Source of the DNA: an uncultured delta proteobacterium
GTDB lineage: Bacteria; Desulfobacterota; BSN033; UBA1163
NCBI GenBank assembly: GCA_963708295.1
Contig: CAVPSJ010000008.1
Coordinates: 160,001 to 224,000 of the forward strand
Direction: 5' to 3'
DNA: 64,000 bases
Shown: in pieces, positions 1-16,199 of the stretch
How positions within the stretch are numbered: position 1 is the stretch's first letter
Layout of the letters: each line of letters begins with the position of its first letter
Program-made: the position numbers and the translations under genes
Notes under the pieces: generated by a model
Databases searched by the model: none
Seen by the model: the letters and a program-made list of their open reading frames with translations, nothing else
What the model was told of the DNA's origin: nothing

Positions 1-4
1 TCCC

Positions 5-442
5 ATGCCATTTATGAATACGGCTTTGATCGGCATGTGGATCGTGATTCCGATTGTTCTGGGAGTGAGACGGCTTCCCTATACGGTGCGGGGGACCTTT
101 GCCTCGCTTCTGATCGTTCACCGGTCTTTTGAAGAGGCTGCCGAGAGTGTCGGGGCCAGGAAGACGACAACCTTCAAAGATGTCACCCTGCCTTTGATCT
201 GGAAAGGGGTCTTGGTAGGATCTCTCTATTCTTTTATCCTCGCGCTTCAGGAGGCCTCGGCCACGCTTCTCTTAGTGGTTCCAGGACATGAGATGATGAC
301 CGTCGGAATTTTTAACTTCTACATCGGGGGCTCTGTGAACGAAGCGGCCGCCCTGGGCCTCATTTTGATCATCCTCGGAGCAGTCTGTCTTTTCGCCATC
401 AACAAGATTGCCGGGAATAAAATGGGGGGAGTGTTCGGGTAA
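5..442 (+). CDS. ABC transporter permease, FbpB/iron(III)-type, C-terminal part (truncated by window start)
   Basis: Hydrophobic helices with EAA loop 'SFEEAAESVGARKTTTFKDVTLPL'. Confidence 0.85.
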   Translation: MPFMNTALIGMWIVIPIVLGVRRLPYTVRGTFASLLIVHRSFEEAAESVGARKTTTFKDVTLPLIWKGVLVGSLYSFILALQEASATLLLVVPGHEMMTVGIFNFYIGGSVNEAAALGLILIILGAVCLFAINKIAGNKMGGVFG

Positions 443-443
443 A

Positions 444-1463
444 ATGGGATTAGGCACCATCGTCATTTTGCTCGCCCTTTTCTTTGCCTACTCCAATGGC
501 TTTCATGACGCAGCGAATGTTGTTTCAACGATGATCATGACAAGGGCGGTTTCTCCAAGAAGAGCCCTTCTCATCGCGGCCGCCTGCGAATTAATCGCCC
601 CTCTTTTCTTAGGGGGAGCTGTGGCGAAAACCATAGGAGAAGATATCATCCGGTTTCCTGCTTACGACCCCGCATCGATCCCCACCTCCGCGGCTTTCCT
701 CGTAGCCGCGCTCGCTGGGGCCATCCTGTGGAACCTCATCACCTGGTTCTTTGGTTTTCCCTCAAGTTCTTCGCATGCGTTGATTGGAGGAATGGTCGGA
801 GCCGGGCTGATCGCTTTCGGGCCTGACAAAATTGTGTGGAGAGGGCTCCTTTATGTCGCCGCTTCCCTTGTGATTTCCCCTTTGCTGGGGTTAACCTTCG
901 GCGCGCTTTTCTTAAAAATGACTCTCTACCTCTTCCGAAACGCTACCCCCCGGGCAAATGCCTTTTTCAACAAGATGCAGATTCCTTCCTCGATTGCCCT
1001 CGCCATCAGCCACGGCTCCAACGATGTCCAGAAATCGATTGGCCTGATCGCCATTTCGCTGGTCATCCTTGGACTCTCCACCGGGTTTCGTGCTCCCTTC
1101 TGGGTCGTTGCGAGCTGCGGGGCGGCGACAGCCTTGGGAACAGCGACGGGGGGGTGGCGAATCATGAAGACGATGGGTTCAAAAATTTATCGCCTGAGGT
1201 CCGTCCATGCTTTCTGCGCTCAAACTTCCTCGGCAGCCGTCATTCTGGGGGCAGCGTGGTTGGGTGGTCCGGTATCGACGACCCATGTGGTTTCTTCCAG
1301 CATCATGGGCGTCGGAGCGGGTCAACGGATTTCAGCGGTCCGGTGGGGAGTGGCGAAGAATATCATCCTGGCTTGGGTTATCACTATCCCTGCCTCCGCG
1401 GTGATGGCGGGATTGAGTTTCTATCTCATCCAGGAGATTCTCTTTCATGTCATGAAAGGATAG
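444..1463 (+). CDS. pit: Inorganic phosphate transporter, PiT family
   Basis: PiT signatures 'NGFHDAANVV', 'PSSSSHALIGG', 'HGSNDVQKSIG', 'PVSTTHVVSSSIMGVG'; ATG at 444 follows the upstream stop. Confidence 0.92.
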   Translation: MGLGTIVILLALFFAYSNGFHDAANVVSTMIMTRAVSPRRALLIAAACELIAPLFLGGAVAKTIGEDIIRFPAYDPASIPTSAAFLVAALAGAILWNLITWFFGFPSSSSHALIGGMVGAGLIAFGPDKIVWRGLLYVAASLVISPLLGLTFGALFLKMTLYLFRNATPRANAFFNKMQIPSSIALAISHGSNDVQKSIGLIAISLVILGLSTGFRAPFWVVASCGAATALGTATGGWRIMKTMGSKIYRLRSVHAFCAQTSSAAVILGAAWLGGPVSTTHVVSSSIMGVGAGQRISAVRWGVAKNIILAWVITIPASAVMAGLSFYLIQEILFHVMKG

Positions 1464-1481
1464 AAGAAAGGTTGGTGAAGG

Positions 1482-2270
1482 ATGTTTAGGGGATTCCTCT
1501 TTGATCTCGACGGGACCATCTATCGAAGCGAACAACTCATCCCGGGGGCAGAGGGCGTCATCCGGCTGCTTCGAGAAAAAGGAAGGAAGGTGGTTTTCCT
1601 TTCCAATAAGCCTATTCAGACCAGAGAGGATTATGCCTTGAAGCTGACCCAGCTCGGCATTCCGACTCAGCCTGAAGAGGTGATTAACTCAACCTTTGTG
1701 ATGGTCAATTATCTTAAGAAGGTTGCCCCTCTGGCCAGACTCTTCGTCGTAGGGGAGACTCCTTTTGTTGAAGAGCTGAAAAGGGCGGGTTTTCAAATCA
1801 CCGACGTGCCAAAAGAGATTGAATATGTGATCGTGGCTTTTGATCGGACATTTGATTATGGAAAACTGAACATTGCCTTCCAGGCCATCAAACTGGGAGC
1901 CCATTTTGTTGCTACCAACCCCGACCGGACATGTCCGGTCGAAGGAGGAGAAATTCCGGATTGCGCGGGGATGATCGCGGCCATTGAGGCGGTGACGGAG
2001 AAAAAAGTGGAGGTCATCGTCGGCAAACCTTCTCCCATGATGGTTCAAGCTGCACTGGATGTGCTTCGATTGCAGCCGGCCGATTGTATTCTGATCGGGG
2101 ATCGGATCGAAACGGACATCAAAATGGGGAAGGATTCGGGGATCAGCACAGGAATTGTTCTTACCGGCGTCACCAACGAAGAGATGCTCAAGAAATTCAA
2201 ACACGGCCCGCTTCAGCCCGATTTTGTTTTTCAGAGCATTGCCGACGTCGAAAACTTATTGATAGGGTGA
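1482..2270 (+). CDS. HAD-IIA hydrolase, NagD family
   Basis: Motifs 'FDLDGTIY', 'LSNKP', 'VATNPD', 'GKPS', 'IGDRIETDI'. Confidence 0.92.
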   Translation: MFRGFLFDLDGTIYRSEQLIPGAEGVIRLLREKGRKVVFLSNKPIQTREDYALKLTQLGIPTQPEEVINSTFVMVNYLKKVAPLARLFVVGETPFVEELKRAGFQITDVPKEIEYVIVAFDRTFDYGKLNIAFQAIKLGAHFVATNPDRTCPVEGGEIPDCAGMIAAIEAVTEKKVEVIVGKPSPMMVQAALDVLRLQPADCILIGDRIETDIKMGKDSGISTGIVLTGVTNEEMLKKFKHGPLQPDFVFQSIADVENLLIG

Positions 2271-2350
2271 CACGGAGATACGGGGACGCGGGGACCCGGG
2301 GACACTGAGACGCGGAGAACCGGTGATGGGGAGATGGGGAAATTCGGAAA
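2265..2350 (+). repeat. Tandem 8-mer repeat arm (GAYRCGGR-like)
   Basis: gacacgga-gatacggg-gacgcggg-gacccggg-gacactga-gacgcgga... starting at the HAD stop codon. Confidence 0.8.
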
Positions 2351-2590
2351 CAATAAAATGAAGAAGAGGGAGATGCAGTCATAAGAGTCCAGTAATCTGT
2401 TCCGTGAGCATTTGTTTGATCCCGCAGACACTTTCAACCTGCCACCAATTTCTTCCTGAAATGTTGATTGTTCATTTTAGTTCCATAATACAAGATTTCA
2501 AACGGCAATTGGTAATGTGCTAATAACATTCCTTTCTTCCCAAGTTATTTTACCCCAAAAGACTCTCCAAAAACACTCCCAAAACACTCC

Positions 2591-2638
2591 TTGACAACTT
2601 AATAATAATGAAGTATCTTGCATGAGATTGATTTCATG
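2591..2638 (+). promoter_or_regulatory. Sigma70 promoter with adjacent palindromic operator
   Basis: TTGACA (2591) -17 bp- TATCTT (2614), then inverted repeat CATGAGAT-TG-ATTTCATG (2621-2638). Confidence 0.6.
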
Positions 2639-2687
2639 AAATAAAGTTTACTAGTGCATGCTGCAAACCTCGTAAGGGAGAAAGGAG

Positions 2688-3026
2688 TTGGTTGTGAAAC
2701 ATCTATCTAAATTACTTCGTATTTCACTCTTTATTGCTCTATTGGTTTTGCCAATGACCGCTTGTATGGAAGGTTCGTATGTTCTAAGTTTGACGGTTGA
2801 GACACCTCAGGATAAGGCGACTGTTAGTACGCCTACGGTCACGGTAAGTGGCACAGTCACTAAGACGGCTGAGGTGAAGATTAATGACGTGGTAGTGCCG
2901 TCTAAAGGTAGCAAATTCTCCACCGATATCAAGTTGACCGAAGGGAGCAATGTTATTACGGTTGTCGCTAAATCGGGTAAGGACACGGAAACGAAGACGC
3001 TGACTATTACCTACAAACCAAGTTAG
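2688..3026 (+). CDS. Putative lipoprotein with an Ig-like beta-sandwich domain
   Basis: AAGGAG RBS; signal peptide ending 'LPMTAC'; beta-rich 'VTVSGTV...LTEGSNVITVVAK...TLTITY'. Confidence 0.7.
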   Translation: MVVKHLSKLLRISLFIALLVLPMTACMEGSYVLSLTVETPQDKATVSTPTVTVSGTVTKTAEVKINDVVVPSKGSKFSTDIKLTEGSNVITVVAKSGKDTETKTLTITYKPS

Positions 3027-3132
3027 CAGTCTGGCTAAGAACAGGAATCAAATTCCAAAACTGGGAGCAATTGACGGAGGAGAAGACCTAAAATTGCCTA
3101 CAATAAATTTGTTTACTTAGATTATTAGGCAC

Positions 3133-3222
3133 TACAGGGTCCAGAGATATACAAATATTTCTGGAGGTTAAAAACCTTGATAGTCGGGCCGCTATCTGTA
3201 CGTGGAGGATAGCGGCTTTTTT
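3133..3222 (+). promoter_or_regulatory. Candidate nhaA-I/DUF1646-like (Li+/Na+) riboswitch with intrinsic terminator
   Basis: GGGT(3137)...two hairpins...GTCGGGCCGC(3183-3192), overlapping terminator CCGCTATC/GATAGCGG + T-tract. The terminator is clear; the family assignment is from recalled consensus only. Confidence 0.4.
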
Positions 3223-3281
3223 ATGCAATGAACTAGAGCGGTCTTTCAAAACTTCGATTCAGAATTAAGGGAGGAATCAAC

Positions 3282-3608
3282 ATGGCAACATGGACATTTC
3301 TTACGAATCATGCAATTGTACTTTTCTTTCTGGCTAAACATCCATTAATCACTGGACGAGAGTTGTCAGGATTAATAGGGATTACGGAAAGGTCAGTAAG
3401 AAATATTATTTCTGATCTCGAATCAGAGGGGTATATCCAAAAGTCCAAAGAGGGAAGGCAAGCAAGGTATAAAACCAATCCGCATTTACCTCTTCGGCAC
3501 CGCACTCAGAAGGATAAGGCAATAAAAATTCTCCTCGAAGCATTAGACGGCGAACAAATACGAAAAGGAGCCAAGAAACGGGAAGCATCGTCGAAGGCAG
3601 TTCTATAA
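3282..3608 (+). CDS. Winged helix-turn-helix transcriptional regulator ('WTFLTNHA' type)
   Basis: GGAGG RBS; HTH 'TGRELSGLIGITERSVRNIISDLESEGYI' and wing 'EGRQARY'. Confidence 0.85.
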   Translation: MATWTFLTNHAIVLFFLAKHPLITGRELSGLIGITERSVRNIISDLESEGYIQKSKEGRQARYKTNPHLPLRHRTQKDKAIKILLEALDGEQIRKGAKKREASSKAVL

Positions 3609-3836
3609 AAAAAGGGACTCCAACTTTCTGTGTCTCCTGTTTCATCGCCTCCGTCGATGTATTCAGGTCAAGTAACGATCCACCCCCTTGTTTCAATATT
3701 TCAAACGATAATCTTGATTACTCAGTATGAGCCACCATTGCGGCTTTGTAGGTGCTATACGTAACATAATCTGCTTTTCCTTGTGATATTAGTTAGTTAA
3801 TGGCTGTTTTCCTTTATCACTTTTTTTCTATCCCTG

Positions 3837-4772
3837 TCAAGATAATTCGTTTTCAGCGCCTCCGAGTAACTCCATGCTCTCCTGTTCGTCGTCATCCTCT
3901 TGTTGCGCCTGCGTTCTTTGCAGAACCACCTGCATGGCCTTGTAGTAGTCTCGTTGGACCTTGAGGTTGGCTACGCGGCAGTAGCGCTGCGTGGTGGTAA
4001 TCTGGCCATGTCCCAGAAGGTCCTGAATGGTCGCAAGGTCGGCATCGGCATTGAGAAGCTGTGTGGCCATGGTGTGGCGAAGCCGATGACACGAGACGTT
4101 GAGTCCACTTTGTCGCCCATAGTATTCGATCCTCTTCTGAATGCCTCGGACCGATATCGGTTTGCCTCTCATCGGTCCCTTCTGCACCAGAAACAATCCT
4201 CTGGCTTTCGAGGACCGTTTCGCCAGATACACCGAAAGAGCGGATTGGGCATCTTCACTCATGTAGACCACCCGATCCTTCGCCCCTTTTCCATGGAAGA
4301 CAAAGATCTGTCTTCTCCCGTACTCTACCGCATCAACCGTCAGCTCAGCCACCTCCTGGACCCGAAGGCCGCAGCGGAGCATCAACATGAACATGGCCCG
4401 GTCTCTCAGATCCGTGATGCCATCAAAGAGGCCCCTGACCTGGTCATCCTTCAGGTGCCGGGGCAGTGGCTTGGGCAGACGGAGCGAGATCCGGGTGACA
4501 GGGTTGATGATCGATCTGCCTTCCTCATTTGTGAGATAGTCGAAGAAGAGACGAATCGTTTGCAGGTGGCACGTGATCGTCTTGGGCGTTCGTCTCTTTC
4601 GGAGCAGATGATCGACATAGGCTCCGATCTCCTTACGAGTCACATCAGAGAGAGGCACGGTAAGCCATCGGATGAACTGATCGAGGATGTTGACATAGCT
4701 CTTGACCGTGTGGGCCGAGTAGTTTTTTCTCTTCAAGGCTCTCCGGTACCCAATCAGCTCAGTAGGTTCCAT
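3837..4772 (-). CDS. Tyrosine recombinase/integrase (second gene of the pair)
   Basis: Start MEPTELIG after GGAGGG RBS; 'GLRVQEV', 'GKGAKDR', 'HRLRH', 'LLGH...TTQRY'. Confidence 0.93.
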   Translation of the reverse strand: MEPTELIGYRRALKRKNYSAHTVKSYVNILDQFIRWLTVPLSDVTRKEIGAYVDHLLRKRRTPKTITCHLQTIRLFFDYLTNEEGRSIINPVTRISLRLPKPLPRHLKDDQVRGLFDGITDLRDRAMFMLMLRCGLRVQEVAELTVDAVEYGRRQIFVFHGKGAKDRVVYMSEDAQSALSVYLAKRSSKARGLFLVQKGPMRGKPISVRGIQKRIEYYGRQSGLNVSCHRLRHTMATQLLNADADLATIQDLLGHGQITTTQRYCRVANLKVQRDYYKAMQVVLQRTQAQQEDDDEQESMELLGGAENELS

Positions 4773-5772
4773 CGATCCCTCCTTTCTCGATAATGGCCAT
4801 GGCCCGGAAGTACTCTTGTTCACGGGTTCTGTCCGTGAGCCGGGCGTATCGGCGGGTGACCTCGATGTCCTGATGACCCAGTAGCTGCTGGAGACATTCC
4901 AGGCGCATCCCCGCGTTGAGAAGCTCGGAGGCAAACGTGTGACGCAGACAATGGACCGTGTAGCCTTTCTGTTCAAACCCTGCTTTCTTGAGGTATTTTA
5001 CGAAAAGGTATCTGCCGGTACTGTAACAGAGATGCCCATTGCTCTGGCCGTAAAAGACGAATTCCTTGTTCTTGTCCCTTTGCCTCAGCCAAAGCTTGAT
5101 GGCAAACAGCGCATCGTCACTCAGATACACCACCCTCCCCATGCTGTTCTTCTCTCCCTCGTACAGATCAACCTTTCTACCTTTGATGTCCAGATCGTTT
5201 AACCTTAGTCCCAAGGCCTCGCCGATCCGGATGCCTGTCCGTAAAAGCAGAAGGATCAGAGCCCGGTCCCGGATCTCCTCAATCACCGAGAGAAGTTTTC
5301 TCACATCGACGGGGTTCATCGCCCGAGGCAGGACCTCCGGCAGCTTCAGCTTGATGCCTCGCTTGAGAACGGATCCTGGGATGATATCCTGCTCCATCAG
5401 AAAATGCACAAATGCAAGGATGCAAGCCACCCTCGTCCGCACCGTGGAGATGCGTAATCCCCGGTCCTGCTCCTGCTCGATGAAACCTTCCAGGTCCCTC
5501 CGTTCGAGTTTCTCGATTTCTCTCTTGCCTAACTTCCCATAAAAGTCCAGGAAGAGCCTGACGGAGTTAAAGGAACCGGACAGCGTACTCCGTTTGTGGT
5601 TCAGACGCCACTTGTGGCGCATGTAGCGCTCCAAGTGTTCCTTGGCGGGAAGCTCTAACCAAGAGAGCTTCTGGAGGATGCGGTCGATTGGCGTGGGTGA
5701 AAGAGGCTGTTCACGTACAACTTCATCTTCACACTTGATTGACTCATTGCTGATCAACTGTCCCTGGGTCAT
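4759..5772 (-). CDS. Tyrosine recombinase/integrase (first gene of the pair)
   Basis: Start MTQGQ after AGGAGG RBS; 'GIRIGEA', 'EKNSMGR', 'HCLRH', 'LLGH...VTRRY'; overlaps the next gene by 14 bp. Confidence 0.93.
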   Translation of the reverse strand: MTQGQLISNESIKCEDEVVREQPLSPTPIDRILQKLSWLELPAKEHLERYMRHKWRLNHKRSTLSGSFNSVRLFLDFYGKLGKREIEKLERRDLEGFIEQEQDRGLRISTVRTRVACILAFVHFLMEQDIIPGSVLKRGIKLKLPEVLPRAMNPVDVRKLLSVIEEIRDRALILLLLRTGIRIGEALGLRLNDLDIKGRKVDLYEGEKNSMGRVVYLSDDALFAIKLWLRQRDKNKEFVFYGQSNGHLCYSTGRYLFVKYLKKAGFEQKGYTVHCLRHTFASELLNAGMRLECLQQLLGHQDIEVTRRYARLTDRTREQEYFRAMAIIEKGGIDGTY

Positions 5773-5983
5773 TTCTCTTCCTCCTTTTCTTTTGCAAGAA
5801 AAAGCAGAATAGATCATGACCCTTAGCACTTCTAACGGTCAATCCATTTTGTTACGTATAGGTAGGTGTAACCTGCAACCCACTTTTTCACCTCTTCCTA
5901 CCTGTAACTTTCTCTTCCCTAATTTGTGAAATGAGTGTATATTGCAAGCGGGTGAGGTGTGAAGATAATATTGAAACCAAACT

Positions 5984-6062
5984 GTCCAACTAATCGCTCA
6001 AGCGGACTCGCTGCGTCTATGCTGCGCTTCACCTGCGCTCGCCGCTTGGGGTGGTATTGGAT
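5984..6062 (+). other. Degenerate attC-like integron cassette site
   Basis: R'' GTCCAAC, L'' GCTCAAGCGG ... CCGCTTGGG, R'-like ATTGGAT; imperfect hairpin. Confidence 0.6.
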
Positions 6063-6087
6063 CACACACGATGAAGGGGGGTCATAA

Positions 6088-6651
6088 ATGAGCAGCTACC
6101 GTGTACATTACAAAAAAGGTGATGTCGAGATTGAAGTCGAGTCTACTGACAAGGACTACGTTGGCCAAATGTTGCAGAAATTCCTCCCGCCGCAGGCGCC
6201 TAAGATTCCGGCGGGCAAACCCGCAAAGCAAAAAGGTAAACCCCCCAAAATTGGCCGTCGACATCCCCAAGGCAAGGAAGCCGTAGCGAATGAAGAAGAA
6301 ACCATGATCGATTACGCTGCAGTTGCGAACGCCGTTCATGAGTCGGACAAGACCGAGGATATTCAAAAGAACATCCTGAACAAACGGGACAATCTTGGTC
6401 GCATTCTGCTGTCATTCCACTTCGCTCATGAGGCAGGAAATGAATATCTTACAACCGGCGATGTTGAGAAGATTACCGATCAACTTAGGATTAAAATTTC
6501 TCAACCTAATGTATCGGGCTGCGTGGCCAAAAACCGCAAATACTTCTCAGCGGCGAGAGCGCGACGAAGGGGGGCAGTAGTGCCTTACAAATTGAACAGG
6601 GCAGGGGAGCAGGCTTACGAGAAACTCATAGCCGGCGGGAAGGTGAAATAG
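6088..6651 (+). CDS. Hypothetical protein with a probable C-terminal winged-helix domain
   Basis: 187-aa ORF with RBS; Pro/Lys linker; 'LTTGDVEKI...QPNVSGCV...YKLNRAGEQAY'. Confidence 0.75.
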   Translation: MSSYRVHYKKGDVEIEVESTDKDYVGQMLQKFLPPQAPKIPAGKPAKQKGKPPKIGRRHPQGKEAVANEEETMIDYAAVANAVHESDKTEDIQKNILNKRDNLGRILLSFHFAHEAGNEYLTTGDVEKITDQLRIKISQPNVSGCVAKNRKYFSAARARRRGAVVPYKLNRAGEQAYEKLIAGGKVK

Positions 6652-6652
6652 C

Positions 6653-7441
6653 ATGCCGTCCATAGACAAGAACACTCTTCTCGCTGCAATATGCCCACCT
6701 CTTGACCAACGTCTGGCCGACCAGATGGTTGATGAGTTCATATCATTAGAACGGCGCTACGTGCTTCGTGATTGGGAGCCGGCTACTCTTGACGGAGGTC
6801 AATTCGCGGAAGCGTCAGCAAGGCTACTATACCATCAGGACTCGAGAACCTTGAACCGCCGTAAGGGCGTAAATGAATGCCTCACCTATGTGGAAGACCC
6901 CGCCAATTCAAATCCTCATGCATTTCCGGAGCGAAAAGCAGCCCTCCATATTGACAGGATTATTCGTACCATCTACAAGTTCCGTTCAGATCGTGGTGCA
7001 GTACATATAGACCCCGATTATACGGCGAACCATCTGGACTCCAAGCTTGTACTTGAGAACTGCCGCTGGGTTATATCGGAATTCCTACGGGTGTTTTGGA
7101 CTGCAGACCGGCGCCAGGTTGCAGCTGCAATCCGGCAGATTATTCAGTATGACGTACCAGTAATCGGCGTTTATGACGGATGTCCGCTTGTTCAAAGGGT
7201 CGATTGCTCGGCAGAAGAGGAAATCCTCATCCTACTTCATCACGCCGGGGAAGAGGGGTTGAGCCGCACCGAAATCGGTCGCGCCGTACTGAGAGGGGCG
7301 CCTGCTGTCACAAAAGCTCTGACCATACTCATTTCACCGAGACGCCGCGAGGTCGTGAAGTTACAAAATGGGAACTATCGGCTGACGGATATCGGTATAC
7401 GCCGCGTTCTGACTGAGCTTGCCGATAAACTCGTAATTTGA
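6653..7441 (+). CDS. Putative HEPN-like RNase fused to a C-terminal wHTH
   Basis: Helical region with 'IYKFRSDRGAVH' (Rx4-6H); C-terminal 'LSRTEIG...YRLTDIG'; starts 1 nt after the upstream stop. Confidence 0.65.
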   Translation: MPSIDKNTLLAAICPPLDQRLADQMVDEFISLERRYVLRDWEPATLDGGQFAEASARLLYHQDSRTLNRRKGVNECLTYVEDPANSNPHAFPERKAALHIDRIIRTIYKFRSDRGAVHIDPDYTANHLDSKLVLENCRWVISEFLRVFWTADRRQVAAAIRQIIQYDVPVIGVYDGCPLVQRVDCSAEEEILILLHHAGEEGLSRTEIGRAVLRGAPAVTKALTILISPRRREVVKLQNGNYRLTDIGIRRVLTELADKLVI

Positions 7442-7449
7442 GCGAGAAA

Positions 7450-7513
7450 GTCAAACAAACGGCTGCACCCGCTCCGCCGATAAACCCGGCTCCCGGTGAC
7501 CTTTTCGTTACCC
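7450..7513 (+). other. Degenerate attC-like site
   Basis: GTCAAAC-AAACG-GCTGCACC...GGTGACC-TTTTC-GTTACCC just after the 262-aa ORF stop. Confidence 0.5.
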
Positions 7514-7620
7514 TCTCTTTCAACTCGTAATCTTTGATTCCTGATTATGGTTGTCCGTAATGACTTGTAGGTGTTATATCTATAAGAAGAGATGTTTGTT
7601 GATGTCCCTCCCCTTACCCT

Positions 7621-7696
7621 TTCTCCCAATCTTCTTATCTTCCCATCTCCGCGTCACCGTGTCTCGCCGTCACCGCGTCTATTATCTCACCGCGTC
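7621..7696 (-). repeat. Tandem 8-mer repeat arm, inverted relative to 2265-2350
   Basis: Minus strand reads gacgcggt-gacggcga-gacacggt-gacgcgga-gatgggaa-gataagaa-gattggga after the glpC-fragment stop. Confidence 0.75.
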
Positions 7697-7996
7697 AATG
7701 CATCTCTTAAGATCTGGATAGGATGGAGGACTTTCAATCCAGTGAGGTGACGGATTTGCAGGCGACAGCCTTCGCAGTCGGACAGGATAATTTCGGGTTT
7801 GAGACGGTCGATCGCCTCCTTCAAATCCCTTCCGATCTCCTGAGAGATCTCATATTTTTCTTTCTTAAATCCATAGGTACCGCCCAGCCCGCAGCAATCC
7901 GCTTCGATGTTGTCCAGTTGAAGGCCCGGGATAGAGCGGAGGATTTCAACGGCAGGGAGGCCAATTCCCAGGGCTCTCAAATGACATGGGGCAAAA
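7687..7996 (-). pseudogene. glpC: Duplicated 3' fragment of glpC
   Basis: 7699-7996 aligns without gaps to 9624-9921; encodes FAPCHLRALG...ILRDALTR*; no matching 5' part. Confidence 0.9.
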
Positions 7997-8205
7997 AAGA
8001 AGGGGACGTAGGTTCTGAGACAACTTGGGGAAGAAGCACGAGCCCCAGCCGTTGACAAGAAAGATTCGGTTCCTTCGTCTGGGAAAGAAAAAATGGGGCA
8101 GCCAATTGAGTGTATTGTAATGGAAACACTCCTTTGTTTCGCAGTCTGTGTCAACCAGAATGGCTACTTTATTTTTGACGTGAGACGGTCAGCAGAGCAG
8201 ACAGG

Positions 8206-8640
8206 TTATTTCTTGTTCTCTTGGGAAGATAAGTATTTGATAATCGCTTTCTTATATTTTTCAAAGTCCCTTAAATCCCGGTGAAGAATTGAGACAACAA
8301 TCGTAGGATCGATGGTTTCATATTGATGGACAACGACATTTCTAAATATTGCCATCTTCTCTAATGTTCCGCATAAATTCCTACCAATCACCTTGTTTTC
8401 CATCAAAATCTTAAAAGTATCAGCATAGCCAGTTGGCAGCCTCATTTCCTGGTCAGAAATAATGTGATTCGCAATGTCGACACAAGCCTCGATAAGAATA
8501 TGCAATGTCCTCTCAACGATCCTCTGAGTTTTCCAATCGATTTTATATCGATTCAGAGAAATTCTGGAGAAATCCCCAATCTGTTTAAGATAGGTATCTA
8601 TCTGGACAAGCTTCCTCCCTATCAAGAGCTTATCAACCAA
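8206..8640 (-). CDS. HepT-like HEPN toxin (DUF86)
   Basis: 'FRNVVVHQY' Rx4HxY motif; overlaps the upstream MNT gene. Confidence 0.9.
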   Translation of the reverse strand: MVDKLLIGRKLVQIDTYLKQIGDFSRISLNRYKIDWKTQRIVERTLHILIEACVDIANHIISDQEMRLPTGYADTFKILMENKVIGRNLCGTLEKMAIFRNVVVHQYETIDPTIVVSILHRDLRDFEKYKKAIIKYLSSQENKK

Positions 8641-9049
8641 TGCCGTACCTCCTATGCAGGATCTCTCTTTCTTTTATGGTAAAATCAAAAAATTCTCTCA
8701 GTATTCGAGATTCGTATTTGTGTCTCAGAAAAGGGTCTTTATCAATCAAGATTTTTCTTTTCTGCAAAATCCTTCCAGCGAGGCTAATGGGCGCGGAATT
8801 CAGGACGACCAAGTCGATCTCATCGGTACCGAGAATTCGTGAAATTTCACTGAATAACGAAAGGAAGTCTAATCTCTTTATATTCCTCACGTATATCCCC
8901 AGATCGACATCACTCAAGATTCTCCTTTTGTCTCTTGCCATGCCCCCAAAAAGGTAAGCGAAGATAATATTGGGGTCATCCATGAAAAGATCGGCTAAGA
9001 GATCGAGATGTTTGTGGATGTCTTCCGGTATCCTTTTAAAACGTATCAT
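8633..9049 (-). CDS. MntA-like minimal nucleotidyltransferase antitoxin
   Basis: 'AYLFGGMARD...SDVDLGI...EIDLVVLNSAP'. Confidence 0.9.
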   Translation of the reverse strand: MIRFKRIPEDIHKHLDLLADLFMDDPNIIFAYLFGGMARDKRRILSDVDLGIYVRNIKRLDFLSLFSEISRILGTDEIDLVVLNSAPISLAGRILQKRKILIDKDPFLRHKYESRILREFFDFTIKEREILHRRYGIG

Positions 9050-9133
9050 GGTTAAACCATGTCAAAGAAGGGAGCAAAGTCTAATCAGAATTGTCTTAGC
9101 AATTACCTGCTGGCATATTAACATGACTCAACC

Positions 9134-9328
9134 CTATGTGCGTTTAAGAATCTCAAAAGGTCTTCGGTGTCCATGCTCGACCATCTGTCTTAGCATCTCT
9201 CTCGATTTCCGTTTCATCATTTTGAGGCGCTCTTCAAAGGTCAAAGAAGCGAGGTAATTCAGTTCAAACTCAAGCTCCTTTTCCTCATCGGACTGGGATA
9301 ATTTAAGGATCGATCCATGGCTTCCCAT
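9134..9328 (-). CDS. Small hypothetical protein, antitoxin-like
   Basis: Charged helical ORF 'DEEKELEFELNYLASLTFEERLKMM' co-oriented upstream of the MNT-HEPN pair; start uncertain. Confidence 0.55.
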   Translation of the reverse strand: MGSHGSILKLSQSDEEKELEFELNYLASLTFEERLKMMKRKSREMLRQMVEHGHRRPFEILKRT

Positions 9329-9454
9329 AGGTTCAAAGTAGACTTTTTCCATGTCTAAGTCAAGCCTAATACGGGGTCTTATGCTGACGGAATTAGATTG
9401 AGTTACCAGTGAGGCCATAGTTAAGAAAACGTAATTACACTGCTTCGGTAAATT

Positions 9455-9563
9455 CCCATCCCTTTCCTAACCTCCCCCTTGAAGGGGGAGGAACATAATG
9501 TTTTCCCTCCCCTTCAGGGGGAGGGAAAGGGTGGGGGTGGGTTAATCAGATGTCTACTCAATT
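9455..9563. repeat. REP-like CCCTCCCCTT/AGGGGGAGG palindromic element, copy 1
   Basis: Shares the core and the tail GGGTGGGGGTGG-GTTAATCAGA-GTCTA-TCAATT with 63115-63356. Confidence 0.75.
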
Positions 9564-9614
9564 ATGGACGACTAGTGAGTCTATAGAGAAAGGGAACATT
9601 GAGGAATATGAGGC

Positions 9615-10835
9615 CTACAGAAGTGCATCTCTTAGAATCTGGATGGGATGCAAAACCTTCAGGCCGGTCAGGTGGCGGATTTGCAGGCGACAGCCTTCGC
9701 AGTCGGACAGGATGATGTCGGGTTTGAGACGGTCGATCGCCTCTGCCAAATCCCTTCCGATCTCCTGGGAGATCTCATATTTTTCTTTCTTAAATCCATA
9801 GGTACCGCCCAGCCCGCAGCAGTCCGCTTCGATGTTGTCCAGTTGAAGACCCGGGATAGAGCGGAGGATTTCAACGGCAGGGAGGCCAATTCCCAGGGCT
9901 CTCAAATGACATGGGGCAAAATAGGCCGTTCTTAGCGAAAGTTGTTTAAAATTTATGTTGAGGTTATTCAATTCCTTTAGGTTTGTGAGAAACTCGAACA
10001 CGTCGAAAGTGTGGGCGGCGACTTCCTCCGCTCCGGGAATGGAGAGGAGTTGGCTGTATTCATGCTTGATCATGTAACCGCAACTGGTTCCGGAAAAGAG
10101 AATGTCCAAGCCCGAATGGACGGCCTTCAGAAAAGAGGGGACGTTCCGAAGGGCCATTTCTTTTGCCGTCTTGAAATCTCCATTCCCGAGCATGGGAATG
10201 CCGCAGCAACTCTGCGGGGGAAGGACGACTTCGAACCCATTGGCCTCCAAGACTTGAACCGTTGCTTTTCCGACGTCGACTTCATTGGTATTGGTATAGC
10301 AGCCGTAAAAATAGCCAACCCTTTTGCTCCCTTTTGAACGGTGTTTTTTAAACCATCTTCTGAAGGTCGAAGATTCGTATCCTGGGAGTTCTCTCCTCCG
10401 ATCTATCCTCAGGAGGATCTCTACGAACCTTTTGATGAGACGGTTTTTTAAGAGAGGATTGAGAAGGAAAGAGGAGAGGGATCCAAAACGTCCAAAAAGA
10501 TAGGAATGAGTGAGAAGCCAGTCCCGAAAGGGTCTTCCTTTTTCATCCAGATATTTTGCCTTGGCGATGAGATTTAGCTCGGAGATATTTACCCCCGAAG
10601 CGCAGACCATGTCACAGAGATGGCATCCGATGCAAAGATCAATCCGTTTATCCACAGAGGGTTCATCCGACCTTCGAAACCGTTCCATCCCGGGCCCCGC
10701 TTGCTTCGGGCCTGGAAATTCTGGGGTGACTCGCGCGACAGGGCAGACCGCCGCGCAGGTCGCGCAGCGGATGCAAACATCGGAGTTATTCTTGGGCCAA
10801 CTTTGTTTTTTCATCGCATGATCTAACTTTGGCAT
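9615..10835 (-). CDS. glpC: Anaerobic glycerol-3-phosphate dehydrogenase subunit C
   Basis: Two CxxCxxCxxxC motifs and two CCG domains; in an operon with glpA and glpB; start may be 10814-10841. Confidence 0.92.
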   Translation of the reverse strand: MPKLDHAMKKQSWPKNNSDVCIRCATCAAVCPVARVTPEFPGPKQAGPGMERFRRSDEPSVDKRIDLCIGCHLCDMVCASGVNISELNLIAKAKYLDEKGRPFRDWLLTHSYLFGRFGSLSSFLLNPLLKNRLIKRFVEILLRIDRRRELPGYESSTFRRWFKKHRSKGSKRVGYFYGCYTNTNEVDVGKATVQVLEANGFEVVLPPQSCCGIPMLGNGDFKTAKEMALRNVPSFLKAVHSGLDILFSGTSCGYMIKHEYSQLLSIPGAEEVAAHTFDVFEFLTNLKELNNLNINFKQLSLRTAYFAPCHLRALGIGLPAVEILRSIPGLQLDNIEADCCGLGGTYGFKKEKYEISQEIGRDLAEAIDRLKPDIILSDCEGCRLQIRHLTGLKVLHPIQILRDALL

Positions 10836-10854
10836 CGGCAAAAATGTTATCCAA

Positions 10855-11062
10855 AAATTCGAAATCCGAATATCGAAGCCCGAAGTTGTTTAAACCCTAA
10901 ACACTAAACTCTAAATCCTAAACAAATCCAAAATATAAAACCCAAAGGGTAATTTTCACTTCTCAACCATTGAACGAAATACTTTGTAAGTCGTGGCGTT
11001 TTGAGTTTTCTCATTCGAGCATTTGAGTTTATTTAGAGTTTAGGATTTTGAGTTTAGGATTT
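10855..11062. repeat. Palindromic element with 7-mer repeat arms, preceded by a half arm of the 12382-type element
   Basis: aaccctaaacactaaactctaaatcctaaacaaat ... atttagagtttaggattttgagtttaggattt. Confidence 0.8.
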
Positions 11063-11101
11063 ATGGCCTCGTCAAGAGAAAGTTGTTGATTGGGTAAAGC
11101 T

Positions 11102-12331
11102 TCATTTGAGGGCACCTAAGGCATACTTTGCTGCCGTATATCCTGTTGCTATTTCTATCCCTTCTCTCGATTTCTCATCGATGCACTGATGATGGGCTAA
11201 GAGCGAGCCTGCAACCCATATATTTTCCAGAATTACATTTCCCCCTTCGTCAACGGGTTGAAGAGAGGCGTTGGTTAAAATGCCCGCTCGATGAATCGGA
11301 TGCGGAGGATCGCTGAAGAAGAGGTTTCCGAACCAACCTTCTCGCGAGGGGGGCTGATGGACCGGAAGGTTGAAGGTGGGCTCAAAAATCCTTTCGGCGT
11401 CTGCCCTCAGACCTCCCCCCGTGAAACGTCCTGTTGCAAGGATAAAACGATCCGAAGAGAAAGAGGTGATCACAGGGGGACGAAGCACTTCAATGCCCTG
11501 ACATCTTTTCTCTGTTACGGTTGTTCTCACAACGGGATAACCCAGAAGAAACGTGACGCCTTTCTCGATCAACCACCCTTTAAATCGATCAAAGATCCTC
11601 TTTCCCGGAACCGACGGAGGAAGGATAGGGATTTCGAAAACCCGTGCGCCCGTGATCTCCTCCAAGTCTTCCTTAACCCGAATCGGATCGCCCATTCCCA
11701 GGAGTGCCGGGAATCCAATTCGGGTTTCACCCCGGAGTTGTTTCTTAATCTCCCTCCCGACATTCTGTCTAAAGGATTGCTTTTCCATCGACCTGGCCAG
11801 GGCGGTGGCAGTTCGTTCACGATCGGATAGATCAGGGAAGGGAAGGCTGATCCCGTGGCACTTCAGCCGGTCAGCGACATAATGGGGATAAAAATCCTTG
11901 AAGCCCTCAAACCCCACAATGAGCGTGCGCTTTTCATCGAACGAAGCTGCCTCCATCATGGTCGTGGGGATGAGATACGTGGGTCGAAGTGTGCCTGCAC
12001 CCGTCGGGAGAAGACAATTCATCTGGTCGACGGCATGGAAAGAATAAGAAGGCGGGAACAGAGAAACAAAAGAGGAGAGGGCCTGATCAATTCTTGCTAA
12101 GCCTACTTTAGAATAAGGGTGGTCGGCTTGATCTTTGATCCACTGGGAAAGGCCGTCTTTCATCTTTGTTCCAGTGGGACATTGGCCTAGGAGATCGATC
12201 GTATTTGCGAAGAGGCAGAGAGAACCCATCCCCTTTCCAATGATGAGGACTTTTTGGCCAGCCTCTGCAGCCGTTTTGGCTGCCATCAACCCTGAGAGAC
12301 CCATCCCAATCACAATCAGATCGTAGTGCAT
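11102..12331 (-). CDS. glpB: Anaerobic glycerol-3-phosphate dehydrogenase subunit B
   Basis: 'MHYDLIVIGMGLSG', 'PTGAGTLRPTYL', 'FEIPILPPSVPGKR', 'ILATGRFTGGGL'. Confidence 0.92.
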   Translation of the reverse strand: MHYDLIVIGMGLSGLMAAKTAAEAGQKVLIIGKGMGSLCLFANTIDLLGQCPTGTKMKDGLSQWIKDQADHPYSKVGLARIDQALSSFVSLFPPSYSFHAVDQMNCLLPTGAGTLRPTYLIPTTMMEAASFDEKRTLIVGFEGFKDFYPHYVADRLKCHGISLPFPDLSDRERTATALARSMEKQSFRQNVGREIKKQLRGETRIGFPALLGMGDPIRVKEDLEEITGARVFEIPILPPSVPGKRIFDRFKGWLIEKGVTFLLGYPVVRTTVTEKRCQGIEVLRPPVITSFSSDRFILATGRFTGGGLRADAERIFEPTFNLPVHQPPSREGWFGNLFFSDPPHPIHRAGILTNASLQPVDEGGNVILENIWVAGSLLAHHQCIDEKSREGIEIATGYTAAKYALGALK

Positions 12332-12381
12332 GAAATTGCTTTCTTCTTGTATTTGTTCCAATGAGCCGTGCGAATGTTGAA

Positions 12382-12525
12382 AAATCCGAAATCCGAATAT
12401 CGAAATCCGAAACAAATCCAAAATTCCAATGTCAAATTTTCAAAACACAGCTTCATCCTTTTTTGGAATTTTGGATTTTGGTCATTTGACATTGTTTCGA
12501 GCTTCGAATTTCATGCTTCGAATTT
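12382..12525. repeat. Palindromic element with 7-mer repeat arms
   Basis: aaatccgaaatccgaatatcgaaatccgaaacaa ... ttgtttcgagcttcgaatttcatgcttcgaattt. Confidence 0.8.
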
Positions 12526-12556
12526 ATGCCTTCCCTACACAATTTAGTATAAACGG

Positions 12557-14071
12557 TCAAAGGTTAAAGATTCCTTTATAAATGGATTCAATCAATTCTT
12601 CTTCCTGGAGTGCTGCCCCCCAGAGAATCGGGCGGATTCCTCTCCATCGCTCCTCAAGGAATCCCTTTAATATTCCGCTGGAATCTTCTCCTGTCTTCGT
12701 GAAAGGTTGCAGTGCCCCGAGAAGGCGATAGACGCAGAACCCTCCCTGGCACGTCCCCTTGGCGAGGCGCGTCCGGTGGAGGATGTCTTGAAGGTTCTTC
12801 AGTTTCGCTTTTTTCAAGAATTCCTCAACTTCTTTCCGTTGCACCAGTTCACAATCGCACAGGACCTCTCCTCTGTCCGCCAGGAATTGTCGAAGCCTCT
12901 CTTTTGGCCCGGCAGGGCTGTTTGCACCGGGCAGAGGATTGAGATGGGTCGAGCAGGACACCTTTCTCCCGAGTTTTTCACAGATCAGGTCAGACGCTTT
13001 TTCTGACATCAGACGATAGGTCATCAATTTTCCGCCCGTGATGGTCACCAGGTTTTTTATTCCGTCTCTTTTTCCATGGTCAATGAGCGCAAACCCCCGG
13101 CTGATCGCCCGATCATTCCCTTTTTCTTCAGGCTGGAATAAGGGCCTGATCCCTGCATAGGCCCGAAGGAATCTGGCCCCTTCGATGGCAGGAATCATCT
13201 TTGACGTCTCCCGGATCAAGAGGAAGACCTCGCGGGGAGTGACTTCAAATCGCTCAATCTCTTCCAAACGAATGGATGTTGTTCCGAGGATGGACACGGT
13301 TTCATTCGGAACGACGATGTCTCCGTCCGAGGGGGGACGGCAACGATTGATGACACGGCGTGCGAACCTCTGGTTGGTGATCAACAGAGATCCTTTAGAG
13401 AGAGCCAATCCGATGTGAAGGCCGGCTAGCTTAAGGATCTGGTTTGCCCAGGCACCCGTGGCATTGATGATAAACTCGGCTCCGATTGAAAACTCGTCGC
13501 CGGTGGCAAGATCTTTTGCTTCAACGCCCGCTATTTTATCCCCTTCGATCAGCATCGAAGTGACTTCGGTATGGAGGAAGGATTTTGCGCCGTGGCTCTC
13601 GGCATCTTCGGCGTTTTCCAAAATCAGCTTGAAAGGATCGATTGCCCCATCGGGGACCTTCACCGCACTCAGAAGATCGGGATGGAGTTCGGGCTCCCAT
13701 GCCAGGGTTTCATCTCGTGAACAAAGGGTATTCGGGATCCCCGCTTCTTCGCAGGCTCGAAAGAATCGATCTCGGAAGGGTAAGCTATCGTCGGGGAGAG
13801 ACACGAAAAGACCATCTGTTTCTTCGATGCAGTGGGGGGCGATCTTTCGGAGAATCTTGTTTTCGGAAATACATTCCCGGGCAGCTTCTGGATCGGAGAC
13901 AGCATATCTTCCGCCGCTATGAAGAAGCCCGTGGTTCCGACCCGAAGCGCCGGAGGCAAAATCGCCCTTCTCGACCAAAACCGAAGAGATCCCTCTCAGC
14001 GCCAGATCCCTTAAAATTCCAACCCCGGTGGCACCGCCTCCAATGATCAATACTTCTGTTCTTAGCTTCAC
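12557..14071 (-). CDS. glpA: Anaerobic glycerol-3-phosphate dehydrogenase subunit A
   Basis: 'IIGGGATG', 'GRNHGLLHSGGRYAV', 'ITGGKLMTYRLM', C-terminal 'CDCE...GTCQGGFC'. Confidence 0.95.
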   Translation of the reverse strand: MKLRTEVLIIGGGATGVGILRDLALRGISSVLVEKGDFASGASGRNHGLLHSGGRYAVSDPEAARECISENKILRKIAPHCIEETDGLFVSLPDDSLPFRDRFFRACEEAGIPNTLCSRDETLAWEPELHPDLLSAVKVPDGAIDPFKLILENAEDAESHGAKSFLHTEVTSMLIEGDKIAGVEAKDLATGDEFSIGAEFIINATGAWANQILKLAGLHIGLALSKGSLLITNQRFARRVINRCRPPSDGDIVVPNETVSILGTTSIRLEEIERFEVTPREVFLLIRETSKMIPAIEGARFLRAYAGIRPLFQPEEKGNDRAISRGFALIDHGKRDGIKNLVTITGGKLMTYRLMSEKASDLICEKLGRKVSCSTHLNPLPGANSPAGPKERLRQFLADRGEVLCDCELVQRKEVEEFLKKAKLKNLQDILHRTRLAKGTCQGGFCVYRLLGALQPFTKTGEDSSGILKGFLEERWRGIRPILWGAALQEEELIESIYKGIFNL

Positions 14072-14267
14072 TCAAGTCCCGCTGTCTTAAATTCAGCCCA
14101 CCTTTGTCATTCTCTAACGAGATTGGTGGGATTTGTCAAGGGAAGTGAGAATTGTCTTTCCCGATGCCCGTGTCCCTGACGTAATGCGGCAATACGCGGC
14201 AATACAGAACCAATACAAAACTTGACTTTTCAAAAGATTCAAATAAAATGGCGAATAGAGGCTTACG

Positions 14268-15392
14268 ATGGACGAAATCTTAAAAAGCAAACATCATTTC
14301 CTCGACCTAGTTCAAGTCGCTTTTATCCTCACCGATGGTCACTCCAACATCCTTTACGCCAACAAGTATACCAAACGTCTCTTCGGGTACGAGAGGGAAG
14401 AGATAGAAGGTAAACGGATGAGGGTCCTTTTCCTGGAAGAAGATCTTGCCTACTTTCTCCCCAACATTATCTACCTCTCACTTTACAAGAATGGGTTTGA
14501 AGGGGAGGCCCTTTTGAGGCAAAAAGGCGGAACAAAGGTTTTTGCTCACCTTTACACGACCGCTTTCAAGGAAGGGGGGGAGGTTTTTATTTCCTTTTCT
14601 TTCCAGGAGATTCAACGACTGAAGAAGCTGGAGAGAGAAAGACTGGAGATGGAGCGTTGGGCAAGCCTTGGCATGATGGTGGAAGAGATTGCCCATCAGG
14701 TTCGAAATCCGATCGTTGCCATTGGAGGATATTCGCAACGTCTTCTCCACACACTCCAGTCCTCGCCCAAGGGGAAAACCTATCTCAATCAAATTCTACG
14801 GGAGTCGAAGAGGCTCGAAAATCTGGTCCAGCGGTTAGAGGAGTATGTTCTGTTCCCGAGGCCTGCTTATCGGAGGGAGAGGATTGAAAGGGTGCTGGAG
14901 GCTGTCCTCCAGACCTCTTCGAGAGAAGCGGCAGAACAAGGGGTCTTCTTCAATCTGGAGACAGGCGCCTTGGAGGGGAGAGGGGATTTCTATATTGACA
15001 AAGATCTCATCGCCAAAGCCCTCTTTTACGTTTTGGAAAACAGCATTGAGGCTGTCAGACAGATACCGATGGGGAAAAAGGGTAGGGTCGTGAAGGTATC
15101 CCTCTTCAGAGATGGGGGAGACATCGGGATTTCAATCTCAGACAGGGGGGAGGGGATTCCCAGGAAAAACCTTGACCGAATTTTTGAACCTTTTTTTTCC
15201 ACCCGGCCTGGACGGGTGGGGTTGGGGTTAACCTTTGCTAAGAGGGTGGTGGAGGAACAGGGGGGAAGGATTCGGGTCGAGAGTCGTTTAAAGAAAGGGA
15301 CAACGATCACACTCACTTTCGCAAAGGATCGGCGTAGGATGTTACGTCGGGAAAAACTTTCCCCGGAGGGCGCGGGGACAGATAACAATTGA
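14268..15392 (+). CDS. PAS-domain sensor histidine kinase
   Basis: PAS domain, H-box 'IAHQVRNP', 'DRGEGI', 'FEPFFST', 'GLGL'. Confidence 0.9.
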   Translation: MDEILKSKHHFLDLVQVAFILTDGHSNILYANKYTKRLFGYEREEIEGKRMRVLFLEEDLAYFLPNIIYLSLYKNGFEGEALLRQKGGTKVFAHLYTTAFKEGGEVFISFSFQEIQRLKKLERERLEMERWASLGMMVEEIAHQVRNPIVAIGGYSQRLLHTLQSSPKGKTYLNQILRESKRLENLVQRLEEYVLFPRPAYRRERIERVLEAVLQTSSREAAEQGVFFNLETGALEGRGDFYIDKDLIAKALFYVLENSIEAVRQIPMGKKGRVVKVSLFRDGGDIGISISDRGEGIPRKNLDRIFEPFFSTRPGRVGLGLTFAKRVVEEQGGRIRVESRLKKGTTITLTFAKDRRRMLRREKLSPEGAGTDNN

Positions 15393-15701
15393 GCGACACC
15401 CCACCGTCTCGAACCTATCGTTCCTCCGATTGTTGTCGAATGGTCACACCCCTCCAATCCGCCCGCCGCATAAGTACTTCCTCCGTTCCGTCTTCCTGTC
15501 AAAAAAAAACATAAAAAAGGCATCTTGAACTTTAGGGTTTAGGTTCGATGGAACTTTTTCTTTACAAAAAAGGAGTCGGTGTTGACATCCCCGTCCAGCA
15601 GGTTAAAATAGGGGGGAATTTCGGAACCTGTAAGGCGGAGTTCGTGAATGATGGTTAGGCCAGAGGGTTCGTTAAACTCCCAAGTGTCTCACAGGACGGA
15701 T

Positions 15702-16199
15702 ATGGAAAAGGGATTGATGGAAGTCAAAGTGATGGGTATCGTGGTGGATCCCAAGGCGTCAAACCCCGTCGTCGTCTTGGTGGATCTTTCGGGGCAGAAG
15801 GCTCTGCCGATATGGATTGGAGTATTCGAAGCAGAAGCCATTTCAAGAGGCCTCGAGGATGCGATGACACTTCGCCCCATGACACACGACCTCATGAAGC
15901 AGATTTTGGATACCTTTCAGGTAACAGTCACTCGGGTCGTCATCCATGACCTGAAGGAAAATACGTTTTATGCGAACCTTTACCTGGACGCGGGAGGAAC
16001 TGAGCTGGTGGTGGATAGCCGTCCCAGCGATGCCATCGCCCTGGCGGTAAGGGTGAAGGCTCCTATTTTTGTCGCGGACTCGGTGATTGAGGCAACGAAG
16101 CAAATGGGGGTTCTCGCCTCCAACCTTTTGGAAGGTGATGAACTTAAGACCATCATCGAGAATATGAAACCCGAAGACTTCGGAAAGTATAAAATGTAG
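15702..16199 (+). CDS. Bifunctional nuclease family protein (DUF151)
   Basis: 'LPIWIGVFEAEAI', 'RPMTHDL', 'DSRPSDAIALA'. Confidence 0.93.
   Translation: MEKGLMEVKVMGIVVDPKASNPVVVLVDLSGQKALPIWIGVFEAEAISRGLEDAMTLRPMTHDLMKQILDTFQVTVTRVVIHDLKENTFYANLYLDAGGTELVVDSRPSDAIALAVRVKAPIFVADSVIEATKQMGVLASNLLEGDELKTIIENMKPEDFGKYKM

Follow-up and report, generated by a model that had tools for sequence, protein, structure and literature searches.

The poly-wHTH (PRA-wHTH) class is a computational prediction by Li, Burroughs and Aravind, and in the available text of the preprint it rests on one paragraph (bioRxiv 10.64898/2026.10.19.760177). According to that text, one or more uncharacterised, fast-evolving winged-helix genes are located upstream of an effector, which is "most commonly HEPN". 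The winged-helix units are single or repeated, and repeated units either stand in tandem or form individual genes; their N-terminal extensions are of at least four kinds and the taxa are diverse. Some loci contain winged-helix genes only, and a PRA-wHTH domain is also found upstream of ParA-Tox-RelA. In the literature covered, which lies largely outside subscription journals, no second paper using the names poly-wHTH or PRA-wHTH was found, and no experiments on the class. A second relevant system is the type IX retron, whose defence needs both RT and msDNA. As far as the accessible part of the report describes Retron-Kva2, its HEPN protein alone is toxic, its WH protein alone mitigates this, rRNA and tRNA are the substrates that the RNase cleaves, and HEPN is set free by a phage nuclease (bioRxiv 10.64898/2026.07.14.738597). 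No account of the pair described below appears in the available text of PMC10853773, PMC12839542, PMC6563490, PMC13092281, PMC10440598, bioRxiv 10.64898/2026.03.17.712381 or bioRxiv 10.64898/2026.07.14.737667.

The locus lies in a window of 64,000 nucleotides, that is, the whole stretch of DNA that was analysed, and it probably represents a member of the predicted class, carried in a decayed cassette: a HEPN-winged-helix effector that is widespread, lacks a family model and has a partner that can be exchanged. It consists of two genes on the plus strand: ORF1 (6088-6651, 187 aa), the predicted regulator, sensor or antitoxin, and ORF2 (6653-7441, 262 aa), the predicted RNase effector, which together measure 1.35 kb. 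Their junction is TAG-C-ATG, as the first-pass annotation had stated in describing two translationally coupled reading frames. Compared with the closest related locus (L001), the identity at codon positions 1/2/3 is 0.62/0.71/0.40 for ORF1 and 0.74/0.89/0.38 for ORF2; since the third positions are far less conserved than the first and second, both are under codon-level constraint and are genuine genes. A promoter-like site at 5942-5969 agrees with the consensus at only 9 of 12 positions. Rfam gave no match inside 5984..7513, and in Pfam, PADLOC 2.0 and NCBIfam at E<=1 no family matched ORF1 or ORF2 except MetRS-N at E 0.12. The earlier statement that the pair is not a named system is right only in part: no curated model, PADLOC included, matches either protein, and the layout does fit the predicted poly-wHTH/PRA-wHTH class as outlined in the available preprint text.

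In the AlphaFold2 model of ORF2 (pLDDT 86.8), helices are predicted at residues 19-37, 49-64, 73-81, 94-112 and 126-148, followed by a beta-hairpin (171-180) and a MarR-like winged helix (181-262). Structural alignment of residues 14-150 with HEPN proteins gave Z 10.3 for 2hsb (rmsd 3.5, 121 residues aligned), Z 9.4 for the sacsin HEPN 3o10 and Z 9.1 for 1ufb, values that are modest for a helical bundle, as the comparison tool grades a Z of about 10 as ambiguous for such folds and the non-HEPN bundle 6jmu, at Z 9.5, comes close to the HEPN scores. Foldseek against PDB and BFVD returned nothing at E<=0.001, and the proposed HEPN fold was in this way recovered by structural Z and not by Foldseek. 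The C-terminal winged helix aligns with MarR 7wze at Z 10.3, and with MarR-type winged helices in general at Z about 10; a profile search matched MepR at E 4e-5, and MarR-type winged helices were the only matches in PDB sequence searches.

The HEPN Z values alone are indecisive, and it is the conserved motif that settles the HEPN assignment. The segment IYKFRSDRGAVH (residues 107-118) contains the Rx6H motif R111-S-D-R-G-A-V-H118 (nt 6983-7006, plus strand), so that the layout of the model agrees with the previously claimed HEPN-type motif in a helical domain and C-terminal wHTH. The alignment of the family holds 108 sequences, namely the query and those 107 of the 150 representatives listed that have a length of 235-300 aa, with identities to the query of 19-74%; each of the residues R111, H118 and E53 is kept in all of them but one (107 of 108). 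In the model, R111 stands at the end of the core helix 94-112, counted as helix 3, H118 in the loop that follows and E53 in helix 2 (49-64); the same placement of the motif R, H and E is described for HEPN RNases in the accessible text of PMC3710099. In summary, ORF2 is predicted to combine a HEPN fold and an intact, conserved Rx6H site with a fused winged helix, and HEPN biology would make it a dimeric RNase.

The RNase family is large: 803 relatives were found among 2028 candidates, the closest metagenomic ones being 74-93% identical, and at E<=0.001 it amounts to 819 clusters at 50% identity, some of which were probably matched via the winged helix alone. None of Pfam, NCBIfam and PADLOC has a model for it. 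The aligned members match at most generic winged-helix entries among the curated family and defence models, and a PADLOC HEPN match is absent from all 108. An Atlas search proposed Hypoth_Ymh for ORF2 at 0.78, as a lead only; Ymh is presumably a HEPN family, and neither Pfam Abi_C nor Ymh was matched in the sets of 117 or 108 members.

ORF1 has an AlphaFold2 model with pLDDT 77.8, in which a beta-hairpin and helix (residues 4-32) are followed by a disordered Pro/Lys linker (36-70) and a winged helix with a basic wing (about 85-185), just as the layout had been proposed. The winged helix aligns at Z 9.2 both with PadR 5x11 and with AF1382 2qvo, and the pI of the protein is 9.6. Homologues of ORF1 number 33 among 147 candidates; a search for longer fused or tandem relatives found none, which is weak evidence. 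In the four pairs compared, the winged helix of ORF1 is 33-53% identical and the HEPN domain 63-78%, which suggests from conservation that the partner gene diverges faster than the RNase gene.

Further relatives were collected in one GTDB scan, which gave 25 loci out of 70 pattern matches; because the search patterns contained the catalytic motif, motif conservation within these loci is circular, and the set covers close relatives only. One locus (L010) begins at a contig edge, leaving 24 that are informative for the upstream gene. A partner gene precedes the HEPN gene in all 24, over 11 named phyla; it is intact and on the same strand in 23, with a spacing of -11 to +45 nt in 22, and in L024 it is present in pieces. 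The expected pairing of homologues is accordingly found, with the qualification that the partners belong to about seven types, which are exchangeable and of which one locus may have more than one. Four of the 24 are clear homologues of ORF1, four more are so by profile (91.7%), one shares the N-terminal hairpin and two give weak matches; in the remaining 13 (groups C, E and F) no homology to ORF1 is detectable. A winged-helix fold is assigned to ORF1 and, through homology, to groups A and B; the 13 partners of groups C, E and F are read as winged helices from the pattern, with weak Pfam hints, and PDB profile searches with groups C and E found nothing. The N-termini of the partners include a hairpin-helix, a two-helix form and the double zinc ribbon carried by group F. 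In a tree of 24 RNases, from which the fragmented L016 and L022 were omitted, partner type is clustered but changes 9 times where 7 would be the minimum, and the sister RNases of L005 and L011 (support 100/99) have different partners. Conservation across these loci suggests that the RNase is always preceded by a small partner gene, which has been exchanged between lineages. For L027 (2041-2913), a distant relative from an archaeon, located on a plasmid of Natronomonas pharaonis, no upstream partner is annotated on the same strand. In L019 (5382-8777) and L024 (4657-8750), a DndB-family gene stands directly 5' of the zinc-ribbon partner and HEPN gene, which suggests a three-gene variant.

Matched by description, the pair most likely belongs to the predicted poly-wHTH (PRA-wHTH) class. 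As in that class, the winged-helix ORF1 lies directly 5' of a HEPN effector, a partner being present at every informative locus, and the partner diverges fast and has several distinct N-termini. The multiple copies of the class are approached by 5 of the 24 loci (L002, L003, L004, L006 and L020), in which there are two to four small partner genes, those of groups C, E, G and H being winged helices only putatively; relative to poly-wHTH, the copy in the window is a minimal, one-partner form. The most "poly" arrangement found is that of L004 (4240-7232), where the HEPN gene is preceded by three small partner genes and followed by a fourth, which is broken. A winged helix fused to the C-terminus of HEPN, as in ORF2, is not mentioned in the available preprint text, in which the word "integron" has 0 occurrences. 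No ParA neighbour was seen near the 25 loci.

For the class itself, section 37 of the preprint, in its available text, proposes that the winged-helix proteins are the primary defence, coating invading DNA and blocking its expression or replication, with the HEPN RNase as a backup suicide effector, and cites loci composed of winged-helix genes only (bioRxiv 10.64898/2026.10.19.760177). The fast divergence of the ORF1 winged helix and the multiple partner genes in the five loci above are consistent with such coating. The end domain, linker and basic DNA-binding domain of ORF1 may also be arranged much as in xenogeneic silencers. However, here and in most loci a single partner is tightly coupled to the RNase gene, as would be expected of a stoichiometric toxin-partner pair, and the RNase site is almost invariant, both of which make primary coating an unlikely role for this pair. 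The 1.35-kb form is the simplest version in which the antitoxin, sensor or primary-defence role of the winged-helix protein could be told apart.

What we consider slightly more probable than all else taken together is that the pair is a two-gene winged-helix and HEPN conflict system, a minimal member of its class, which acts by abortive infection with ORF1 restraining the RNase. The earlier proposal of an RNase effector with a partner regulator or sensor is upheld as a prediction by the fold, the motif placement, the conservation and the obligate pairing. In the proposed mechanism, and in keeping with HEPN biology, ORF2 would form a dimeric RNase, whose cleavage of tRNA or rRNA would bring translation to a stop. 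By analogy with the HEPN-WH module of type IX retrons, ORF1 may bind ORF2 and keep the RNase shut, and both winged helices may sit on DNA in that state. An invader signal would then free the RNase; it might consist in the degradation of host DNA, in the presence of foreign DNA or in a phage protein that acts on ORF1.

The likeness to the type IX retron is that a HEPN RNase gene is coupled to a winged-helix gene, and the WH protein of the retron alone can act as an antitoxin; according to the available text of PMC7736814, the best template of the type IX HEPN is also 2hsb. The differences are that Rx4-6H is missing from the retron HEPN, which relies on H64 and R122, whereas ORF2 has the canonical Rx6H, that HEPN comes first in the retron operon, and that the retron WH has two alpha-beta HEPN-binding domains. 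The 135 neighbouring ORFs surveyed (up to six nearest per locus) include no RT, ParA or RelA, and a crude screen of 258 ORFs of at least 200 aa, from the 25 loci and positions 1-16000 of the window, contained no YADD motif. Identification as a type IX retron was rejected on the lack of RT among the neighbours and the presence of the canonical motif. A retron-free counterpart can nevertheless be imagined by analogy, with ordinary DNA as the tripwire in place of msDNA: together with the winged helix of ORF2, ORF1 would clamp the HEPN dimer shut on the host chromosome, phage-driven degradation or displacement of this DNA would free the RNase, and a conserved RNase would be reprogrammed by swapped winged-helix sensor genes that are unrelated to one another, sometimes as an integron cassette. 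This version is speculative and we regard it as quite doubtful.

Two other HEPN systems were compared. SadR (Abi_C / AbiJ-type) has the same R-polar-x5-H spacing, with RNEYGDAH, as given in the accessible text of PMC13590631; it differs in that one protein alone makes up SadR, with HEPN at its C-terminus, while in the present pair HEPN is N-terminal and the partner separate. HepT-MntA, of the HEPN-MNT type, shares the organisation of a HEPN RNase toxin in a two-gene operon, and differs in that ORF1 is a winged-helix protein and not a nucleotidyltransferase. As HepT-like models do not match ORF2, a HepT-MNT pair was rejected as the identity of ORF1 and ORF2. A HepT-MNT toxin-antitoxin pair is present elsewhere in the window, at 8206-9049, 0.8 kb downstream of the HEPN pair, flanked by a 300-nt duplicate (7699-7998 and 9624-9923, 93% identical) of the 3' end of a CCG-domain (glpC-like) gene.

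The two genes stand between two attC-like sites, both on the plus strand. The upstream one (5984..6062) has the boxes R'' GTCCAAC, a 5-nt spacer, L'' GCTCAAGC, L' GCTTGGG and R' ATTGGAT, in which the crossover reads ATT where GTT is expected (G to A); the downstream one (7450..7513) begins 9 nt past the ORF2 stop and has R'' GTCAAAC, L'' GCTGCACC and R' GTTACCC. In both, the right arm is 1 nt short. With a weight matrix built from 14 attC of class 1 integrons, the upstream site is the best in the 64-kb window, at 34.2 against 27.0 for the highest of 20 shuffled-window maxima, and the downstream site is third at 24.1, a score of which about 0.25-0.45 are expected per window. When gene flanks were scanned, the two sites scored 36.0 and 25.7, left-out real attC 26.8-60.6, and the maxima over 63 control ORFs were 28.3 for upstream and 13.3 for downstream flanks; that is to say, the downstream site falls just below the range of real sites and above all 63 control downstream flanks. 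The second-highest matrix score, 32.2, belongs to 54592-54735 on the minus strand, which is absent from the covariance matches and is probably due to chance; since this unrelated place scores so high, the matrix is not fully specific.

A covariance model of 11 attC, one of which (VIM-4) was offset by one base, also placed the upstream site first, at 14.9 bits and on the bottom strand, which is the correct one, at only E=0.14; the downstream site was not recovered at E<=10, a miss that is weak evidence, as the model with default filters also missed the real dfrA1 attC. In a rule-based scan the upstream site was joint first at chance level and the downstream one was missed; folding energies were unremarkable (z from -1.5 to +0.2), and blastn of both sites against plasmids gave chance matches only. 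Of the two degenerate hairpins that the first-pass annotation had reported, the upstream one, top by two methods, is fairly convincing and the downstream one weak. Both are damaged and have probably lost the ability to recombine.

In the 25 related loci, no score on the attC matrix exceeded 10.5; a covariance match directly upstream of the partner gene, a weak one (11 bits, E=1.7), is confined to L001. Since none of the 25 has a clear attC, the cassette is to be seen as a vehicle and not as a defining feature of the family, and only for the copy in the window is the earlier idea of a stranded cassette plausible. The window copy is probably such a stranded, decayed integron cassette: it may once have moved as a cassette and would now lie decayed, with its integrase not nearby. 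Integron cassettes are in this sense a possible added route of spread for the HEPN and winged-helix pair. In L013, G-rich stretches on both flanks of the pair (7564-8786) resemble each other by eye and are not attC-like.

Toxin-antitoxin cassettes are common in integrons, and a small DNA-binding gene 5' of a coupled RNase gene, in mobile surroundings that include tandem recombinases and the remains of attC sites, could also be a type II addiction module, in which ORF1 would be an autorepressing antitoxin and the pair would stabilise the cassette or element with no role in phage defence. RNase toxins in cassettes are mentioned in the available text of PMC3710099. This reading is rather unlikely for several reasons. 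The start of ORF1 follows the R' box of the upstream site at a distance of only 25 nt, too short for the cassette to contain a promoter or operator; simple antitoxins do not usually occur as several partners per locus or fused to a zinc ribbon; and a clear attC is absent from all 25 relatives.

The neighbourhoods bear on whether the pair has a conflict role at all. Conflict-type neighbours (R-M methylase, DndB, YhcG, RES, HNH or HEPN) were counted among the six nearest ORFs at 11 of the 25 loci, a raw count with no background control, and the other 14 have none. Many of the loci sit among housekeeping genes, which, like the lack of matches to curated defence models, would suit a non-toxic regulatory pair of a DNA-binding regulator and an RNA-binding or RNA-processing HEPN protein. 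The patchy distribution of related loci over many phyla, their insertion at unrelated sites, the exchange of partners and the intact RNase site argue against this, and we consider it very improbable. The plasmid and phage collections are nearly empty of the family, with one weak plasmid match and no phage match, which speaks against a conflict system. The preferred reading remains the conflict system in which ORF1 restrains the RNase.

No IntI is present within the 64-kb window, as had been noted, and no complete integron of IntI with adjacent attI. The neighbouring recombinases, on which the first-pass annotation is silent, are two tandem XerC/D-like tyrosine recombinases on the minus strand (3837-4976 and 4759-5829), which were considered as IntI and rejected: they score 78 and 111 bits against the TIGR02249 cutoff of 265, are about 25% identical to IntI1 and do not have the IntI insertion. 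They are bounded by 16-bp inverted repeats (3755-3770 and 5846-5861, 15/16 identical), and GTAGGTG adjoins both ends. The segment 3755-5861 looks like a small mobile element, for which no close plasmid relative was found. A 14-bp direct repeat found post hoc (3746-3759 and 7565-7578, 13/14 identical) surrounds the recombinases and the HEPN pair, and could mark one integrative element with the pair as cargo. Farther upstream, a match to the nhaA-I riboswitch family (3137-3197) precedes a gene for a small winged-helix regulator (3282-3608).
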